Part shown: positions 24,716-33,493 of the stretch, one piece after another | Numbering within the stretch: the stretch's first letter is position 1 | Layout of the letters: the number at the start of each line of letters is the position of its first letter | Source of the DNA: Tissierellia bacterium | GTDB taxonomy: Bacteria; Bacillota; Clostridia; Tissierellales; Peptoniphilaceae | Assembly (NCBI GenBank): GCA_030529425.1 | Contig: JAUMWX010000004.1 | Span: 78,629-142,628 of the forward strand | DNA: 64,000 nucleotides | Direction: 5' to 3' | Notes under the pieces: model-generated | Database searches by the model: none | The model's input: the letters and a program-made list of their open reading frames with translations, nothing else | What the model was told of the DNA's origin: nothing | Made by a program: the position numbers and the translations under genes

Positions 24716-25951
24716 TTATCTGTTTCCGTTTGGAAATATATTTATGTCCGGTATGGTTTTCGGAAATTTTGAAACATTCAAAAGAGATGCAAATGTTATT
24801 GAAGTCTCACCAAAATTTTTTCTTATACTAAATAGGGCATCATCCAAATTTTCTTTTTTTATCCTGTATGAATAATCCTCCAAGAAACATAATTGCGTAT
24901 CCGACAGATTATCAATAAGCTTGAAAGTTCTGATGCTTAAAGCTCTTACCGGCATGTTCCAAGTATATTTTCTTCTGAATAAATTAAATGCTTTCTCAGC
25001 CAAAATATTTGAGGATTGAGTAAACATATTAATATCCTCCTGAAAATTGTGATAGTTCAACCTGCTGTCTCTTATATATATTTGAATTCCTCCGGCTTTT
25101 ACCGAATGCTTTCGAAGTCTGTTTGAAATCTTGAAAGAAAGTAATCTCAAAACTGAAAACACTTCATCATTATTTATAAGATCTTCGGAACATGTACTTC
25201 CATTGCCTATACTTTTCATCGGCTCTTTATAATTTAAATCCGCAACCTCCGAATCATCCAATCCGTTAGCATAGTTCAAAAGTTTTATGCCGTTTATCCC
25301 AAACTTTCTACCTATAAAATCACGACTTGTTCTTGCCAAATCACCTATTGTGTGGATCCCATAATAATTAAATTTCTTTCCGGTTGATTTTCCAACTCCT
25401 AAAAGCTCCTCGACCTTTAATTTCCAAATCAGTTCTTTAAATTCATTTTTGGATATCTCGGTAACTGCATCCGGCTTTTTCATATCACTTCCCAGCTTGG
25501 CAAAAACTTTATTGAAACTTACCCCTATACTCACCGTAATTCCCAGCTCAGTTTTTATCCTTTTCCTTATTTTTTCGGCGATGTCAATACCGCTTCCATG
25601 CAGCTTTTGAGAACCGGAAACATCCAACCAACACTCATCAAGGCCGAATGCCTCAACTTGATTGGTATAATCGTAATATATATTTCTTGCCATTTTGGAA
25701 TATTTCAGATACTCTTGGTAATGCGGCTCAACAATAATCAGATTGGGACATTTTCTCAAGGCTTGCCATACCGTTTCTCCGGTCTGTACGCCGTAATATT
25801 TCGCCTCTTGAGATTTGGCAAGAACTATTCCGTGTCTGTTTTTAATCGATCCGCAAACCGCAATCGGTTTATTTTTTAATTTTGGATTTAATTTTGCCTC
25901 AATAGAAGCATAACAATTGTTCATATCTGCATGTAAAATCACTCTATCCAT
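24716..25951 (-). CDS. Y-family DNA polymerase (DinB/UmuC-like translesion polymerase).
   Basis: MDRVILHADMNNCYASIE ... GLDECWLDVS match the Y-family palm motifs. Start placed at M32 with a GAGGT SD. Divergent from the XRE/ImmA pair. Confidence 0.8.
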   Translation of the reverse strand: MDRVILHADMNNCYASIEAKLNPKLKNKPIAVCGSIKNRHGIVLAKSQEAKYYGVQTGETVWQALRKCPNLIIVEPHYQEYLKYSKMARNIYYDYTNQVEAFGLDECWLDVSGSQKLHGSGIDIAEKIRKRIKTELGITVSIGVSFNKVFAKLGSDMKKPDAVTEISKNEFKELIWKLKVEELLGVGKSTGKKFNYYGIHTIGDLARTSRDFIGRKFGINGIKLLNYANGLDDSEVADLNYKEPMKSIGNGSTCSEDLINNDEVFSVLRLLSFKISNRLRKHSVKAGGIQIYIRDSRLNYHNFQEDINMFTQSSNILAEKAFNLFRRKYTWNMPVRALSIRTFKLIDNLSDTQLCFLEDYSYRIKKENLDDALFSIRKNFGETSITFASLLNVSKFPKTIPDINIFPNGNR

Positions 25952-25976
25952 AATTACCTCATTGACATTACACGCA

Positions 25977-26028
25977 ATTTTAGCTAAAATATGCGTAAGA
26001 TATTTTCTATATATTATATTACGCATAT
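25977..26028. promoter_or_regulatory. Operator-like palindromes in the divergent promoter between the Y-family polymerase and the XRE regulator.
   Basis: Perfect 14-bp palindrome ATTTTAGCTAAAAT (about 25977-25990). 10-bp inverted repeat ATATGCGTAA ... TTACGCATAT (about 25989-25998 and 26019-26028). No Cheo (GAAC-N4-GTTC) box seen. Confidence 0.45.
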
Positions 26029-26087
26029 TACTTTCTATAGTCAAGCATTATTTTAAAATGCGAAACTTACTTTCTTTGGGAGGCTTT

Positions 26088-26483
26088 ATGAACTTTGGGG
26101 AAAAATTAAAAAATCTGAGAGATAAACATAATCTAACTCAACAGGATTTGGCAAAAAAACTTAATGTTTCTTTAAGGACAATTACAAATTATGAAACGGG
26201 AGGAATGAGACCTAAAAGTAGAGATATTTACTATAAAATGTCCGAAATTTTTGATATAAATGTAAACTATCTGCTTACAGAAGAAGAAGATTTTATTTTT
26301 AAAGCAAAGGATAAATTCGGAAATAAAGGAAAATCGGATGCGGAAGAGATCCTTAGAAGTGTAATAGGTCTTTTTGCGGGAGGAAAATTGGATGAAGAAG
26401 ATAAAAAAGCAGTTTTTGAAGCCATTCAGGAAGCGTACTTCATATCCAAATTAGAAAATAAAAAATATTCAAAGAAGGACTAA
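26088..26483 (+). CDS. XRE-family HTH transcriptional repressor.
   Basis: MNFGEKLKNLRDKHNLTQQDLAKKLNVSLRTITNYETG is a classic XRE/Cro HTH. GGGAGG SD. The track ORF was trimmed to M58. Confidence 0.8.
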   Translation: MNFGEKLKNLRDKHNLTQQDLAKKLNVSLRTITNYETGGMRPKSRDIYYKMSEIFDINVNYLLTEEEDFIFKAKDKFGNKGKSDAEEILRSVIGLFAGGKLDEEDKKAVFEAIQEAYFISKLENKKYSKKD

Positions 26484-26484
26484 A

Positions 26485-27000
26485 ATGAATTTTTATGACA
26501 GAATATTTAAAGATGCCCTACTTCTGAAAAAAAAATATTGCACAAATGACCCACACATGATTTTAAAAGAACGAGGAGTTAGGTTAATCCCTTTTTCCAA
26601 AAATACTAAACTTTTAGGCATGTATAAAATAATAAAAAGAAATCGTTTTGTATTCTATAATCCGTTTATAGATAAAAACATGTTAAAAATGGTCCTTGCT
26701 CATGAGTTGGGACATGATTTATATCATAGAAAAGAAGCGAAAAAAAATGATATTCCCGAATTTACTCTCTTCGACATAAATACCGATATGGAATATGAAG
26801 CAAACCTGTTTGCCGCAAATCTTTTATTGGATGAAAACGAAATTATATCTCACGCCAATATGGGATATACTTATATTCAAATCGCAAAAATTATGAATGT
26901 GAACATAAATCTGTTGTTGTTCAAGTTGAATGAAATGAAAAAAAAAGGATTGAAATTAAACCATTTTGACTATAAGATAAATATCTTTGAAAACATTTAG
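26485..27000 (+). CDS. ImmA/IrrE-family zinc metallopeptidase (DUF955, COG2856).
   Basis: HEXXH motif HELGHDLYH. Start lies 1 nt after the XRE stop, indicating translational coupling. Confidence 0.8.
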   Translation: MNFYDRIFKDALLLKKKYCTNDPHMILKERGVRLIPFSKNTKLLGMYKIIKRNRFVFYNPFIDKNMLKMVLAHELGHDLYHRKEAKKNDIPEFTLFDINTDMEYEANLFAANLLLDENEIISHANMGYTYIQIAKIMNVNINLLLFKLNEMKKKGLKLNHFDYKINIFENI

Positions 27001-28009: not shown

Positions 28010-28054
28010 GCCCATAAATATAAAATGTGAGTATAGATCCGAATCCATACTCAC
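28010..28054 (-). terminator. Rho-independent terminator of the ABC exporter operon (GTGAGTAT/ATACTCAC stem).
   Basis: 8-bp stem with a 12-nt loop a few bp downstream of the ABC gene stop at 28061. T-rich on the minus strand. Confidence 0.5.
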
Positions 28055-28060
28055 TATTTG

Positions 28061-29896
28061 CTAATTATTTATATAATATCCTGCTTGTGCATTCCACAAT
28101 TTCTTATATTCTCCTTCAATTTTTACCAAATCTTCATGCTTTCCGGTTTGAACAATGTTTCCCTCATCAAATACGATTATTGAATCTGAAAACTTACAGC
28201 TTGATAATCTGTGAGATATAAAAATCGCCGTTCTGTCTTTGACTATTTCCGCCAGCCTTTCATATATTTCAGCTTCGGATATAGGATCTAAAGCAGCTGT
28301 CGGCTCATCAAGAATTATAAACGCAGCATCCTGATATATCGCTCTGGCTATTGCAATTTTTTGTGATTCTCCGCCTGAAACCTCTATTCCGCTCTCATCT
28401 ATATTTTTATATAAGGAAGTATCCAATCCTTTTTCCCAGCTGAGAACTTTTTCCCTAAGTCCGACATCTTCAAGAGTCTCCAAAACTCTTTTTTCATCAT
28501 AATCCACACTTCCGGCTATATTTTGAGCTATCGGGTATGAGAATAAATTGTAATCCTGAAATACCACTGAAAATATTTTTATATAATCTTTGTAATTATA
28601 TTTCCTTATATTAATTCCGTTTAATAAAATTTCTCCTTCATCCGGATCATAAAACCTTATTAACAACTTTATAAATGTACTTTTCCCCGAACCGTTTTTT
28701 CCTACAATTGCAAGCCTTTTTCCCAGCTCAAATTTTAAGTTGACATTTTGCAATACCAAATTGTCGGTATTCGGGTATTTAAAACTTACATTTCTAAATT
28801 CTACTTCATATTTTCTGTCATTTCTTTTTTCAGTTGTAAGGCTTCCTTTATACATATCGGATTCTATATCTAAATAATCCAAAACCTTTTTTGCGAAAGG
28901 TAAATTACCTATGTATGATACTATAAAATTCATTATCATTCTGAAGCCTATTATAAACTGAGATATACTTCCTATATATTGAGTTAAGTATCCCACTGAA
29001 AAAGCCCCTGCAAATGCTTTATAAGAAACAAACATGTATATAATAAGCATCTGGCCTCTGTTAAGTAATGAAGATAAGGAATTTATAACACCCGATACTT
29101 TTCTCAAATATTCGTTAAAACCGCTATTTGTTCCAAAAAAACCTTGTTTATCAAAATCCCTAAGTATTTCACTCTGATTATATATTCTATTATCTAATGC
29201 TCTTTCAGGTTGATTTATAAAACTATAAATAAAATAGCTGAAATATCTATTTGCAAATTTAAATGTATCTATCAATTCAGCCCATTTTTTCATTTCATAT
29301 TTTCTTATATAAAATATCGACAATGAAATCAATAAAACCGATAATATGAATCCTAGATTTAGCCATGCATTGTTAAGGAATTCGTATCTGTCATTATAAA
29401 TCCTTCGTGAAAAAAAAGAGCTTATCATAGAAATACTGCCTATTAACAATGTCAAAGACTCAATTAACTGAGGATAGCTATGAAGCGTATGAGTTATTCC
29501 ATAATTATTGAAGTTTTTATTTTGTTGAATATGAGATATTTCTCCAATTATTTCCGTATCTTCAGCATACTTTAAATCCAATTCATTATACTTTTTTGAC
29601 AATATATATTCTTCCTTAAAATATCGTATATTAGTTTCCTTTTCCAAAAAGTAATTTATGGCGGACATAAGAATCTGAGTGAAAAATATAGCTAGTACCG
29701 AATAAGTAGCCCATAGTTTTATACTTGTATTTTGAGAATCTACTTTTCCAATTTCATCTATAATCCTCGCGGATAAAAAAATCGTTATAAGAGGTAACAA
29801 TCCCTTTGATATACTTTGAAATGTCGAAAAAAATAACTCTTTTTTATAATTTTTATAAAGATGCTTAATTGCTCTATAGCTCACACCGTTTTTCAT
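28061..29896 (-). CDS. ABC transporter permease/ATP-binding fusion (type I exporter half-transporter).
   Basis: N-terminal 6-TM domain plus an NBD with Walker A GKNGSGKST, signature VSGGESQKIA and Walker B ILDEPT. Start placed at M13. Overlaps the upstream paralog. Confidence 0.8.
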   Translation of the reverse strand: MKNGVSYRAIKHLYKNYKKELFFSTFQSISKGLLPLITIFLSARIIDEIGKVDSQNTSIKLWATYSVLAIFFTQILMSAINYFLEKETNIRYFKEEYILSKKYNELDLKYAEDTEIIGEISHIQQNKNFNNYGITHTLHSYPQLIESLTLLIGSISMISSFFSRRIYNDRYEFLNNAWLNLGFILSVLLISLSIFYIRKYEMKKWAELIDTFKFANRYFSYFIYSFINQPERALDNRIYNQSEILRDFDKQGFFGTNSGFNEYLRKVSGVINSLSSLLNRGQMLIIYMFVSYKAFAGAFSVGYLTQYIGSISQFIIGFRMIMNFIVSYIGNLPFAKKVLDYLDIESDMYKGSLTTEKRNDRKYEVEFRNVSFKYPNTDNLVLQNVNLKFELGKRLAIVGKNGSGKSTFIKLLIRFYDPDEGEILLNGINIRKYNYKDYIKIFSVVFQDYNLFSYPIAQNIAGSVDYDEKRVLETLEDVGLREKVLSWEKGLDTSLYKNIDESGIEVSGGESQKIAIARAIYQDAAFIILDEPTAALDPISEAEIYERLAEIVKDRTAIFISHRLSSCKFSDSIIVFDEGNIVQTGKHEDLVKIEGEYKKLWNAQAGYYINN

Positions 29897-31688
29897 GGTT
29901 TTCCTCCATATAGTACCTGCTCTGAGTATCAAATAATTTTTTATAGCTTCCTCCGAGCTGCATCAATTCATCATGAGTACCTTTTTCATAAATTTTTTTG
30001 TTTTGAATCAAAATAATGTAATCACAGAATTTTGTAGAAGCTAATCTGTGAGAAATAAAAAACGACAAAGTATTTCTCGACAGTTCATTATATTTTGTAT
30101 ATATTTCTCGTTCGGCAATGGGATCTAAAGCGGCCGTAGGCTCATCCAAAATTAATATGGGACTGTTTCTGTATATAGCTCTCGCCAATAATATCTTTTG
30201 CATTTCTCCACCGGAAAATTCAGGCGCATCTTCATAAACATCCTTAACTATATTGGTATCTACTCCATTTGCCAATTTATCAACCTTTGATCTCAGTCCT
30301 GAAAGTTCAATTACTTTTTCCATTTTTTCCTTGTCATAGTAATCTATGTCATTTGCAATATTTAAAGCTAATGTCCCCGCAAATAATGAATTTTCTTGAA
30401 ATACCGCTGAAAAAATTTTGTAATAATCCTTTCGATTATATATTTTTATATTTTTTCCGTTCATTAATACTTCCCCATCTGTGGGATCCAAAAGACCGCA
30501 TATAAGCTTTATTAAAGTTGTTTTTCCAGCCCCATTCAGTCCTACCACTGCAATTTTTTCTCCAATTCTTACTTTTAAATTTATATTCTCCAAAATATAT
30601 TCGTCCGACAAAGGATATTTGTAGCTTACATTTCTCAATTCCAAATTTATATCACTATTGTTTACATCCAGTTTTTCACCGTCTTCAAATTTATATATTT
30701 CCGGATATTCAATAAATTCTCTAATAGTACTTATTTCCAAATTGGATTTATAAATATTGAATATTTCTCTCAAAAGCATTTGCATTTCAGAAGTTAACTT
30801 GGATTGAGTGGCAAAATATAGCAAAAATAATGATGTATCGAGTTTATTATTTAATACCATGCTTATCAGATAGTAATAAACAAGTGTATTTCTCAAAAGA
30901 TTCAGTAAAAGTTCCACAAAATCTGCAAAAAATATTCTAATAGCAGCCCTTTGCTCAAAATCTCTGTATAATTGTAAGGCATTTTCGTATATTTGACTTA
31001 ACCATTGTGCCAATCCGAACATTCTTATATCTTTTGCATTTTTGTGATTTAATGAAGTAGTGAAAACATATTGTAATTTATTTTGATGTTCTCCTTCTTC
31101 TTTCCTGTTCTTGTACCTCCACTCTTTCAGATTTTTACTCAAATAAAAACTTAATATTGTAGTTGATATTGTAGAAATTACCAAGAAAATTGGAAGTTTT
31201 GCTAAAATAAATATATAAAAAGCCACCAATGTAAATTTGGATATAAAGCTTACCGACTGATCCCATATCAATTCCATTCCTACATTATTTGAATACATTG
31301 AAGTCAAAGCCTTGGTTTTCAAACTTAAAACATCTTTATCCAATATAAGCGGATAACTCATACTTAAGTATTTAGTTACAACTCTTTTTAAATTCACGGT
31401 TCTAATCTCTATTTTTGCCGGTGCTATTATTGAAATATAATAAGAATATATCGTATCAAATACAAGAGATAATCCTCCAAAAAATAAAATGGTCTTTATT
31501 ATCGACTCAAAAGATTTTTCACTGATAACTTTTTCTACTATTTGTGGAATTGTATAAATTTCAACAATCCCGAGAGCCACAGATGTAAAAATAAGTATTA
31601 ATAAATACATCAAAAACATCCGTTGTACCTTCCATGCTGTAGAAATCATATACTTCAAATTGCAAAATAATGAATATTTCTTTTTCAT
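29874..31688 (-). CDS. ABC transporter permease/ATP-binding fusion, heterodimer partner.
   Basis: TMD plus NBD with Walker A GLNGAGKTT, signature FSGGEMQKIL and Walker B ILDEPTAALD. GGGAGG SD. No C39 peptidase domain. Confidence 0.8.
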   Translation of the reverse strand: MKKKYSLFCNLKYMISTAWKVQRMFLMYLLILIFTSVALGIVEIYTIPQIVEKVISEKSFESIIKTILFFGGLSLVFDTIYSYYISIIAPAKIEIRTVNLKRVVTKYLSMSYPLILDKDVLSLKTKALTSMYSNNVGMELIWDQSVSFISKFTLVAFYIFILAKLPIFLVISTISTTILSFYLSKNLKEWRYKNRKEEGEHQNKLQYVFTTSLNHKNAKDIRMFGLAQWLSQIYENALQLYRDFEQRAAIRIFFADFVELLLNLLRNTLVYYYLISMVLNNKLDTSLFLLYFATQSKLTSEMQMLLREIFNIYKSNLEISTIREFIEYPEIYKFEDGEKLDVNNSDINLELRNVSYKYPLSDEYILENINLKVRIGEKIAVVGLNGAGKTTLIKLICGLLDPTDGEVLMNGKNIKIYNRKDYYKIFSAVFQENSLFAGTLALNIANDIDYYDKEKMEKVIELSGLRSKVDKLANGVDTNIVKDVYEDAPEFSGGEMQKILLARAIYRNSPILILDEPTAALDPIAEREIYTKYNELSRNTLSFFISHRLASTKFCDYIILIQNKKIYEKGTHDELMQLGGSYKKLFDTQSRYYMEENHEKRCEL

Positions 31689-31742
31689 ATAAACCTCCCT
31701 TAATTAGAAGTATATTACTCTTTTTTTATTAATCATTTTTAT

Positions 31743-31778
31743 GGGATGAATTGTCATTTTTGAGGGATGAATTGTCAT
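31743..31778 (-). promoter_or_regulatory. Two perfect 15-bp direct repeats (GGGATGAATTGTCAT on the plus strand) with 21-bp periodicity about 55-90 bp upstream of the ABC exporter start. Candidate LytTR binding site.
   Basis: Seen in sequence: repeat copies at 31743-31757 and 31764-31778, overlapping the 3' end of the kinase gene. A TAATAT -10-like element and a GGGAGG SD follow before the ATG at 31688. Confidence 0.55.
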
Positions 31779-32440
31779 AATAGTATTTCTGTGGTAAATG
31801 CACCGTCTTCCGAGTTTCTCGAAATATATCCGTCATACTTGTCAATAATTGCATCTATGCTTATTAGACCAAGCCCCCTGTTTTTCCCCTTTGTAGATTT
31901 GAATATACTTCCTATCTTTCTTTGTTTTTTTCCGGCGGTAAAATTTGTAAAAGATATATATAATCTTTTTCCCTTCATATCCATATATAGCCTTATATAC
32001 CTCTTTTCTTCCGGCAATTCCAATGATGCCTCAATTGCATTGTCGAACAAATTTCCTATAATTGTTGCCAAATCGATCTCTTTTATATCTAAAACACTTG
32101 AAACATTTACATCCAAAACTACTTTGATATTTTGATTTCTCGCCAAACTTACTTTTGAATTAACTATGGCATCGGTCATTTTATTTCCGGTCCTTATTAC
32201 CGGAGCTATGGCATGCAGATCCTCTTCCAACTCGTTGAGATATTTTTTTATGGATTCCATATCATCACTTTCCACATATGACCTAAGGATTTGAATATGA
32301 TTTCTGTAATTATGTCTCCATTTTCTAATGTCCTGATACATATTCTCAACCTCTTCAAAATGTGTGTTTAGAATACTTTTTTGATACTCAAGAACATTTT
32401 CTTTTGCAAATTTCATTTTAATTTTTTTTATAATATTCAT
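31775..32440 (-). CDS. GHKL/HPK10-type histidine kinase catalytic core with no transmembrane sensor domain.
   Basis: H-box RKWRHNYRNHIQ, N-box GNLFDNAIEA and G-box GLGLISI. Only 221 aa, starting 8 bp after the response regulator stop. Confidence 0.7.
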   Translation of the reverse strand: MNIIKKIKMKFAKENVLEYQKSILNTHFEEVENMYQDIRKWRHNYRNHIQILRSYVESDDMESIKKYLNELEEDLHAIAPVIRTGNKMTDAIVNSKVSLARNQNIKVVLDVNVSSVLDIKEIDLATIIGNLFDNAIEASLELPEEKRYIRLYMDMKGKRLYISFTNFTAGKKQRKIGSIFKSTKGKNRGLGLISIDAIIDKYDGYISRNSEDGAFTTEILL

Positions 32441-32447
32441 AATTCAC

Positions 32448-33149
32448 CTAAAAATTTTCAATAATACGCCTATTTATTTCCTGAAATTTTCCTCTTGGGA
32501 TAAATAACTTGATTCCATTGGTCATTTCTACCGCGGTTTTACTCATTCTCTCTATGTATTCTAAATTTATTATCTCACTTCTGCTCAGCTTTAAAAATCT
32601 TTTATCCAACATTTCCTCCATGTCGGTAAGGGTGTTTCTACATCTCCACTCATCTTTAAGTCCGTATATTATTACATAATTTCTATCGGAGGCGATGTAG
32701 ACTATGTCATCTAAATATATCTTAATTTGTTCATCCTTTTCTTTTATCAATATATATTTTTTTCTCGTTTCCGACCTTTCTATTGCTCGATTTAAAACAT
32801 CAAAAAGTTTATCCTCCCTAATCGGCTTTACTAAAAAATTTAACGCTTCAACATCATATCCCTCACCTATATATTCGCTGTATCCGCTTATGAATATAAT
32901 TTGAATGTTTTTATCTTTATTTCTTATCTTTTTCGCAAGTTCAACACCATTAATTTCTTTCATCTCTATATCTAATAAAAGGATGTTGAAATTTTTATAA
33001 TCTTCATAATTAAAAATAAATTCTTCTGATGACTCAAAAAGACTGATTTTGCAACTAATATTATTCTTTTGTGCCCACTTTAAAACATATTTTTCGTATG
33101 TTTCTCTTATTATTTTTTCATCATCAATTATTGCGATTTCAATATTCAT
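32448..33149 (-). CDS. LytTR-family response regulator (receiver plus LytTR DNA-binding domain).
   Basis: Receiver IAIIDDEKII ... LLDIEMKEINGVEL. C-terminal LytTR domain (IVYIASDRNYVIIY ... LKLSRSEIINL). Start placed at M9 (MNIEIAII). Confidence 0.8.
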   Translation of the reverse strand: MNIEIAIIDDEKIIRETYEKYVLKWAQKNNISCKISLFESSEEFIFNYEDYKNFNILLLDIEMKEINGVELAKKIRNKDKNIQIIFISGYSEYIGEGYDVEALNFLVKPIREDKLFDVLNRAIERSETRKKYILIKEKDEQIKIYLDDIVYIASDRNYVIIYGLKDEWRCRNTLTDMEEMLDKRFLKLSRSEIINLEYIERMSKTAVEMTNGIKLFIPRGKFQEINRRIIENF

Positions 33150-33340
33150 AACTCCTCTTTTCCATAAGTTCAATATAGTTTATACTTAGTTTCTCATTTC
33201 AACGATATCATTATACTTATTATAAACAAAAAAACTAAAGTTTGAAAAATCTATGCGTTCTGTTTAAATAATTGCAAATTTATTTAGGTCTAAATTTGAT
33301 TTATTTATTTTTTTTGGTATAATAGATTAGTAAATGAAAT

Positions 33341-33414
33341 GGCGGTATAGCCAAGTGGTAAGGCAGAGGTCTGCAACACCTTTATCATCGGTTCAAATCC
33401 GGTTACCGCCTCCA
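33341..33414 (+). tRNA. tRNA-Cys (anticodon GCA).
   Basis: GGCGGTA acceptor stem paired with TACCGCC. D-arm GCC/GGC. Anticodon loop CTGCAAC. T-arm ATCGG-TTCAAAT-CCGGT. Encoded CCA. Upstream TATAAT at about 33317. Confidence 0.85.
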
Positions 33415-33430
33415 TTTGAGTTAACAAATA

Positions 33431-33460
33431 AAAAATCCGGAATAAATCCCGGATTTTTTA
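33431..33460 (+). terminator. Rho-independent terminator after tRNA-Cys (ATCCGG/CCGGAT stem plus T-run).
   Basis: AAAAATCCGGAATAAATCCCGGATTTTTTATTT. Confidence 0.6.
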
Positions 33461-33493
33461 TTTGTTGTATTTATTATTTACTAAAAAACAATT

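Follow-up and report, generated by a model that had tools for sequence, protein, structure and literature searches.

Response regulators of the LytTR class recognize two 9-11-nt repeats separated by an 11-13-nt spacer (PMC4847170, PMC2766830), and share no universal consensus sequence (PMC4847170). The site of YpdB in the yhjX promoter of E. coli, GGCATTTCAT-N11-GGCATTTCAT, has a 21-bp period (PMC4847170), and the footprints of AlgR in Pseudomonas aeruginosa contain the 9-mers CCGTTCGTC and CCGTTCATC (PMC4787818). Operators of the AgrA, ComE, BlpR and SilA type consist of 9-10-bp direct repeats with 11-12-bp spacers, and are situated just upstream of a weak -35 element (PMC2766830). A different transporter-linked two-component system is BceRS-BceAB of Bacillus subtilis, which is encoded beside the ABC transporter under its control and has a kinase without a sensor domain (PMC12070737).

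We compared these systems with a four-gene cassette located in the window, by which we mean the whole 64-kb stretch of DNA (64,000 nucleotides) that was analysed. This DNA comes from a Tissierellia MAG whose closest named relatives are Helcococcus species. All four cassette genes (response regulator, RR; histidine kinase, HK; and the transporter genes ABC1 and ABC2, in that order) are on the - strand, on which the direct repeat preceding ABC1 is also read. The cassette and the elements bordering it are as follows.

33422-33467, both directions: bidirectional terminator upstream of the cassette
33341-33414, + strand: tRNA-Cys
33219-33248, - strand: sigma-70-like promoter candidate for RR-HK, TTCAAA-16-TATAAT, from a consensus scan
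32448-33173, - strand: LytTR response regulator (RR); Pfam Response_reg E = 4.4e-18, LytTR E = 3.4e-15
31775-32440, - strand: histidine kinase (HK), 221 aa; Pfam SPOB_a and HATPase_c_5 only
29874-31688, - strand: ABC1, a 604-aa ABCB/MsbA-type half-transporter (membrane plus ATPase domain); Pfam ABC_tran, PDB relatives ABCB1, ABCB4 and MsbA
28061-29932, - strand: ABC2, the second half-transporter, 623 aa if the ORF is read from TTG and 611 aa by the public gene call, overlapping the end of ABC1
28027-28054, - strand: terminator-like hairpin with T-run after ABC2, at the end of the cassette

A first reading of this DNA, made from its letters and referred to here as the sequence-only reading, had placed a LytTR regulator gene upstream of the repeat, and the Response_reg and LytTR matches in RR, one gene before the kinase, agree with this placement. 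The RR ORF encodes 241 aa when read from TTG, and the public gene call gives 233 aa with a start at 33149. RR is the presumed binder of the repeated boxes described below; no solved relative of its LytTR domain was found, its PDB sequence matches being to the receiver domain only. HK comprises a dimerisation/phosphoacceptor domain (SPOB_a) and an ATPase domain (HATPase_c_5), contains no membrane segment (maximum 19-residue hydropathy of 1.06), and has the AgrC cytoplasmic module (6E52, 4BXI) as its sole PDB relatives. HK is, as predicted from these features, a cytoplasmic, AgrC-like kinase of the GHKL type. In ABC1 and ABC2, the Pfam search returned only ABC_tran-type matches; a Peptidase_C39 domain was not found in either protein, nor was there a match to ABC_membrane at E <= 0.001. 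In both proteins, hydrophobic segments are present on the N-terminal side and part of the membrane domain can be aligned to MsbA/ABCB1; the membrane domains appear divergent. No NCBIfam model reached its cut-off for any of the four cassette proteins, with the bacteriocin-exporter models scoring far below their cut-offs against the ABC proteins.

The cassette is like YpdA/YpdB in having a LytTR regulator, a direct repeat with a 21-bp period and, as its predicted target, a transporter gene rather than a quorum-sensing or bacteriocin operon. However, YpdA is a membrane LytS-type sensor kinase, whereas the HK of the window is cytoplasmic, and the YpdB target is an MFS-type transporter encoded elsewhere in the genome, whereas the predicted target of the cassette is the adjacent ABC pair. 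The YpdB box also resembles the tGCAATTCAT of the cassette family, whose box adds a C-rich 3' extension (TCCCC). The AlgR sites and the cassette boxes have the TTC[G/A]TC core in common, and the exact sequence CCGTTCGTCCCC or CCGTTCATCCCC is carried by four of the related loci described below (L026, L015, L033 and L047). Nevertheless, AlgR sites frequently occur singly or at irregular spacings, in contrast to the strict pair at 21 bp in the cassette, and AlgR is a proteobacterial global regulator with a membrane kinase (AlgZ/FimS), whereas a single predicted target is visible for the cassette. The resemblance of the family core, C[A/G][A/G]TTC[G/A]TC, to the AlgR and YpdB boxes is supportive only, given that the LytTR consensus is not universal.

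AgrA/AgrC, ComE/ComD, BlpR/BlpH and SilA/SilB share with the cassette the combination of a LytTR regulator and an AgrC-type (HPK10) kinase core, and the geometry of their direct repeats is comparable. However, the Agr, Com and Blp kinases are polytopic membrane HPK10 proteins with 5-7 transmembrane segments, of which the window HK has none. These systems also possess an autoregulatory operator before their RR-HK genes, while the cassette has no box at that position, so that no autoregulatory loop is predicted for it. Furthermore, they include an exporter with a C39 peptidase and a gene for a peptide precursor, whereas the ABC proteins of the cassette lack C39 and no precursor is found among its conserved genes. 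By analogy, then, the cassette looks less like the quorum-sensing systems of the Agr/Com/Blp type and more like a detoxification-type unit.

Bce-type systems and the cassette are alike in that the two-component system is apparently constitutive and the transporter inducible, but it is the logic that is analogous and not the parts. BceS is membrane-anchored by two transmembrane helices, whereas the cassette HK is predicted to be fully cytoplasmic; BceR belongs to the OmpR family, whereas the cassette regulator is of the LytTR type; and BceAB consists of an FtsX-type permease and a separate ATPase, whereas the cassette transporter is a putative ABCB-type heterodimer. The NatK/NatR-NatAB system of Bacillus subtilis offers a further parallel, in that its response regulator, of the LytTR family, governs the ABC transporter operon next to it, as we propose for the cassette. 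Its kinase, NatK, is membrane-bound, however, and its transporter, NatAB, exports Na+ and is of the ABC-2 type, unlike the parts present here. No description of an RR-HK-ABC1-ABC2 cassette was found in the searchable literature, in which the motif string was encountered only in unrelated primer lists. C. difficile RR_1586 was rejected as a described relative as it is of the OmpR family, and Treponema AtcS/AtcR was rejected as its kinase is a membrane protein and the system is genus-specific.

The direct repeat and the candidate promoter ahead of ABC1

The end of the HK gene and the interval between HK and ABC1 contain the following elements.

31743-31757 and 31764-31778, + strand reading: the 15-mer GGGATGAATTGTCAT, two copies, 21 nt from start to start
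31763-31778, - strand: distal box (box 1), with the 15-mer ATGACAATTCATCCC at 31778-31764 and the 12-mer core CAATTCATCCCT at 31774-31763
31742-31757, - strand: proximal box (box 2), with the 15-mer ATGACAATTCATCCC at 31757-31743 and the 12-mer core CAATTCATCCCA at 31753-31742
31733-31778, - strand: tandem of 2.2 copies of the 21-nt unit ATGACAATTCATCCCnnAAAA, from a repeat finder
31709-31717, - strand: candidate -10 region, with TATACT at 31714-31709 (favoured) and TAATAT at 31717-31712, overlapping
31694-31699, - strand: Shine-Dalgarno sequence GGGAGG, 5 nt ahead of the ABC1 ATG (31688)

In the direction of the genes, the element reads ATGACAATTCATCCC-N6-ATGACAATTCATCCC, and its full - strand reading is ATGACAATTCATCCC-TCAAAA-ATGACAATTCATCCC-ATAAAA-ATGA. 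The repeat finder reported two 21-nt units that are identical at 19 of 21 positions, and a partial third copy (ATGA). The sequence-only reading had described a perfect 15-bp direct repeat with a 21-bp period, lying 55-90 bp before the first ABC gene and overlapping the stop codon of the kinase gene. We located both copies at a spacing of 21, found the distance to be correct for an ABC1 gene that begins at 31688, and found that the distal copy contains the stop codon of the kinase gene (TGA, 31777-31775), to which the overlap is limited. The GGGAGG Shine-Dalgarno sequence named in the same reading is likewise present.

Apart from the pair of 15-mers, the 64-kb window contains no perfect direct repeat of at least 14 nt whose copies are spaced by 15-40 bp. 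When the window was simulated 100 times with a first-order Markov model, repeats of at least 15 nt at such spacings appeared in only 2 of the simulations, so that a chance origin is unlikely. Within the 64 kb, there were no further exact copies of the 15-mer; the next-best match had 2 mismatches, was unpaired, and lay within a coding region. Other box pairs at 20-22 bp were also absent from the 64-kb window, which contained scattered single matches with at least 2 mismatches. As these matches are scattered and unpaired, no additional targets are visible in the window. The arrangement of the repeat corresponds to the geometry of LytTR sites, with a box of 12-15 nt occurring twice, 21 nt from start to start.

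The candidate -10 region contains two overlapping hexamers, and the one that had been singled out from the letters as -10-like, TAATAT, does occur there. However, TATACT is the more likely -10 element of the two, judging from the related loci described in the next section. A hexamer of the form TAnnnT follows the 12-mer of box 2 at a distance of 27-29 nt in 54 of 64 relatives, and in the window this distance is 27 nt for TATACT and 24 nt for TAATAT. Moreover, the -10 region of locus L202 reads GTAGTATACT, in which TAATAT has become TAGTAT and TATACT has been kept. It is because of the family spacing of 27-29 nt and this substitution that we favour TATACT. The -10 is TG-extended in 49 of the 64 relatives, and the candidate promoter of the window lacks this extension. 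No recognisable -35 element is present in the window: the hexamers 17 nt upstream of the candidate -10 sequences read AATGAT or AAAAAT, which fits an activator-dependent promoter.

Conservation of the box pair among Clostridia

The HK family is large, with more than 8000 matches at about 60% identity across Clostridia in a protein search. Over 15 diverse members, the mean column identity was 68%, and the consensus had the same length as the window HK. When species-representative genomes were searched from the alignment of these 15 members, at least 577 matches were obtained, from which 80 loci were taken for comparison. The gene order RR-HK-ABC1-ABC2 was kept in nearly all of these 80 loci, and the intergenic region between HK and ABC1 could be delimited in 72 of them. 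The cassette is present in genera of the human gut that include Roseburia, Blautia, Faecousia, Gemmiger and Finegoldia.

The best 12-nt direct repeat (at spacings of 15-30) stood at a spacing of exactly 21 in 54 of the 72 intergenic regions, and the motif was the same each time (binomial P of 1.3e-49, versus a uniform expectation over spacings 15-30). We then scanned for CAATTC[A/G]TCCCC occurring twice at a spacing of 20-22, with 3 or fewer mismatches per box. The paired consensus CAATTC[A/G]TCCCC-N9-C[A/G]ATTC[A/G]TCCCC was found in 66 of the 72 HK-to-ABC1 regions, always on the gene strand, and was found zero times elsewhere in those loci (about 700 kb, both strands). With all spacings from 12 to 40 counted, the boxes were 21 apart in 64 loci, 20 apart in 2 and 26 apart in 1. 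The 6 loci that failed the paired scan (H. kunzii, three Finegoldia, L010 and L048) have degenerate pairs, in which the 21-bp spacing and the [A/G]TCCC core are kept. Columns C0, T3, T4, C5, R6, T7, C8, C10 and C11 are near-invariant in both boxes, whereas conservation among the relatives does not extend to the 9-nt spacer or the flanks; in L202, a 98% relative of the window, both boxes are intact.

Judged by this comparison, the box pair is a classical phylogenetic footprint. The conserved position, orientation and 21-bp spacing in the relatives support the earlier interpretation of the repeat as a LytTR-type operator. The element itself must be redrawn, however: while the pair of 15-mers put forward in the sequence-only reading is real, the conserved core is the 12-mer CAATTC[A/G]TCCCC, and perfect identity over 15 nt is lineage-specific.

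The identity between the two 21-nt units is typically 10-15 of 21 positions in the family, and the 19 of 21 seen in the window is the highest among 64 members. The 21-nt operator unit is amplified in some relatives, with five tandem copies in L045 and three in L007, which suggests that operator arrays may expand and contract by slippage. The boxes of Helcococcus and Finegoldia are far less alike than the two copies of the window. Given these amplified units and dissimilar boxes, the perfect identity of the window's copies most plausibly arose when the 21-nt unit was recently duplicated or homogenised in this lineage, and it is not a functional requirement. An alternative is that the whole repeat is a functionless product of a recent 21-bp slippage duplication, for which the family-maximum likeness of its units and the expansion of the same unit elsewhere could be cited. 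We give this alternative hardly any credence, as the box pair occurs across Clostridia families whose kinases are only about 60% identical, with spacer and flanks unconserved, and as a duplication would account for the identity of the copies but not for the existence of the element.

In about 80% of the relatives (approximately 53 of 66), the 3' half of box 2 (TCGTCCCC) is also the 5' arm of a hairpin, in which it pairs with a downstream GGGGACGA that is followed by a T-run. This hairpin has a dG of -11 to -26 kcal/mol and is positioned between the operator and the -10 element of the ABC genes; its carriers include L017, L016, L019, L021, L024, L076 and about 47 more loci. By prediction, it resembles an intrinsic terminator that would end the RR-HK transcript, and the conservation of box 2 in the relatives that bear it could partly serve RNA structure. 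In the window, the hairpin is absent from positions 31700-31753 (dG 0), and the intergenic RNA folds no better than its shuffles (z = +1.43). In the absence of a hairpin or terminator, read-through into the ABC genes is possible there.

The participation of box 2 in this structure, with its pairing partner and T-run in so many relatives, would also be expected if the repeat were a remnant or part of an RNA element, such as a terminator or attenuator of the RR-HK transcript, and not a protein binding site. This explanation is very improbable for the family as a whole, however, as box 1 has no complementary partner and yet is equally conserved, and as a hairpin gives no reason for the strict 21-bp spacing of direct copies. 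Furthermore, both boxes persist, with the same sequence, where no hairpin is formed (the window, L029, L055, L049 and L012). For the window itself, an explanation by RNA structure was rejected, as its intergenic RNA folded worse than the shuffles.

Proposed control of the exporter genes

We consider it likely that an inducible ABC1/ABC2 promoter has the repeat as its operator, and that this repeat is bound by the phosphorylated LytTR regulator, which thereby activates the exporter. In the mechanism that we propose, the regulator, whose gene is the second one upstream, would be phosphorylated by the adjacent cytoplasmic AgrC-like HK and would then bind, as a dimer, the two boxes CAATTC[A/G]TCCC(C) that are 21 bp apart. 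As 21 bp corresponds to two helical turns, the boxes would lie on the same face of the DNA. With TATACT taken as the -10 element, the centres of the boxes would fall at about -46 and -67 from the predicted transcription start. The bound regulator would recruit RNA polymerase to a promoter in which a -10 element (probably TATACT) is present but a usable -35 is missing, with ABC1 as the first gene under the control of the predicted operator. The RR-HK genes would be transcribed from their own promoter, which has no box and is presumably constitutive; a box pair upstream of the RR gene was found in none of the 72 loci, nor in the window. We infer the identity of the binding protein, activation as the effect of binding, and the position of the transcription start from the sequence, and the assignment of the regulator draws on its adjacency, its co-occurrence with the motif and the geometry of the operator.

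A LytTR operator might instead mediate repression, with the bound regulator blocking transcription such as read-through from RR-HK. Some LytTR regulators both activate and repress, and the window has no terminator between HK and ABC1, so that any read-through must cross the boxes. Nevertheless, we regard repression as unlikely, because a -10 element fixed at 27-29 nt after box 2, together with the missing -35, is the architecture of an activator-dependent promoter, and because in about 80% of the relatives a strong terminator already stops read-through, which would make a roadblock at the boxes redundant there.

As a predicted activator site, the repeat is a textbook-style LytTR operator, and it leaves the understanding of this regulator class unchanged. 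What phylogenetic footprinting has defined is a predicted operator and promoter architecture for a four-gene cassette of hundreds of Clostridia species. The consensus CAATTC[A/G]TCCCC-N9-C[A/G]ATTCGTCCCC could be used directly in reporters and as a pattern with which to search for the regulon, and the cassette raises a tractable question, namely how a kinase without a sensor decides when the exporter is switched on. One answer, which we advance tentatively and which may well be wrong, treats the cassette as a very widespread and so far uncharacterised module through which gut- and host-associated Clostridia signal. In this module, the sensor-less AgrC-type kinase would read the activity of the exporter, or bind its substrate directly in the cytoplasm, and would drive the exporter promoter via the box pair. 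If this were true, the "transporter as sensor" logic of Bce-like systems would have evolved independently with LytTR/HPK10 parts, and the operator consensus would provide a handle for finding inducers and further targets.

Motif matches in metagenomes and the surroundings of the cassette

When metagenomes were scanned with the motif alone (CAATTCRTCMCC-N9-CRATTCRTCCCC), at least 120 loci were obtained. Among the 120 matches listed, 102 had an HK homologue ending just before the motif and an ABC1 homologue starting just after it, and 12 more were compatible with the cassette but cut by a contig end (114 of 120 in total). Two other motif matches, L175 and L141, represent remnants or lie at contig ends. 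The match in L110 (125-210) was rejected as a coincidence, as it belongs to an unrelated tandem array, within a long ORF, of about 4 copies of the 21-nt unit CCTGCCTCCTCAATTCATCCC. In L082, L104 and L158, a full operator, the hairpin and a -10 element precede ABC exporter genes, and RR and HK genes are not adjacent, which indicates that adjacency is not obligatory. These three may be orphan targets, that is, either extra members of the regulon or cassettes that were split by rearrangement. The downstream ABC protein of L104 is only about 27-33% identical to ABC1 and ABC2.

These three metagenome loci, with operator and ABC genes but no adjacent RR-HK, would also be compatible with the box pair being bound by a protein other than the adjacent LytTR regulator. 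We find this quite improbable. The RR-HK pair co-occurs with the motif in 113 of the 120 matches listed and in essentially all of the genome loci, and the cassette contains no second conserved regulator gene. In addition, direct repeats at 21 bp with a TTC[G/A]TC core are typical of LytTR sites. We therefore retain the LytTR regulator of the cassette as the predicted binder.

The three loci L203-L205, in which the kinase is 75% identical to that of the window, have an intact RR-HK pair but ABC genes that are cut to an ATG-ACG-TGA stub and a C-terminal remnant. In these loci the boxes have degenerated (CAATTTATACCA ... CGATTCCAAATA) and now stand 25 apart, with loss of the 21-bp register. Decay of the boxes alongside loss of the ABC genes is as expected if the boxes serve in the regulation of those genes, although this is a single lineage and carries modest weight. 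A P-type ATPase gene is found downstream of the ABC remnant in L203-L205. In L208, a 249-aa kinase homologue is followed, at about 1400-1490, by a triple direct repeat, GCCAAATCA(T/C)(A/T)AAA, with a period of about 23 nt; this repeat lies upstream of an AAA_14/DUF4143 gene, and LytTR-type boxes are absent there.

The cassette of the window interrupts the conserved neighbourhood gltX-cysS-rlmB-yacP, with the tRNA-Cys gene and then the bidirectional terminator (33341-33467) located between yacP and the cassette. The surroundings of the cassette in the relatives are quite different from those in the window. Its placement inside a conserved neighbourhood and these differing contexts suggest that the four-gene unit may be horizontally mobile. 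Beyond the cassette and a diacylglycerol-kinase-like gene, the following genes are found.

about 25900-27000, + strand (10552-11464 in L001): HTH_XRE/Peptidase_M78 (ImmA/IrrE-like) pair and Y-family polymerase gene (IMS)

This stretch may represent the border of a mobile element, or an SOS-like module.
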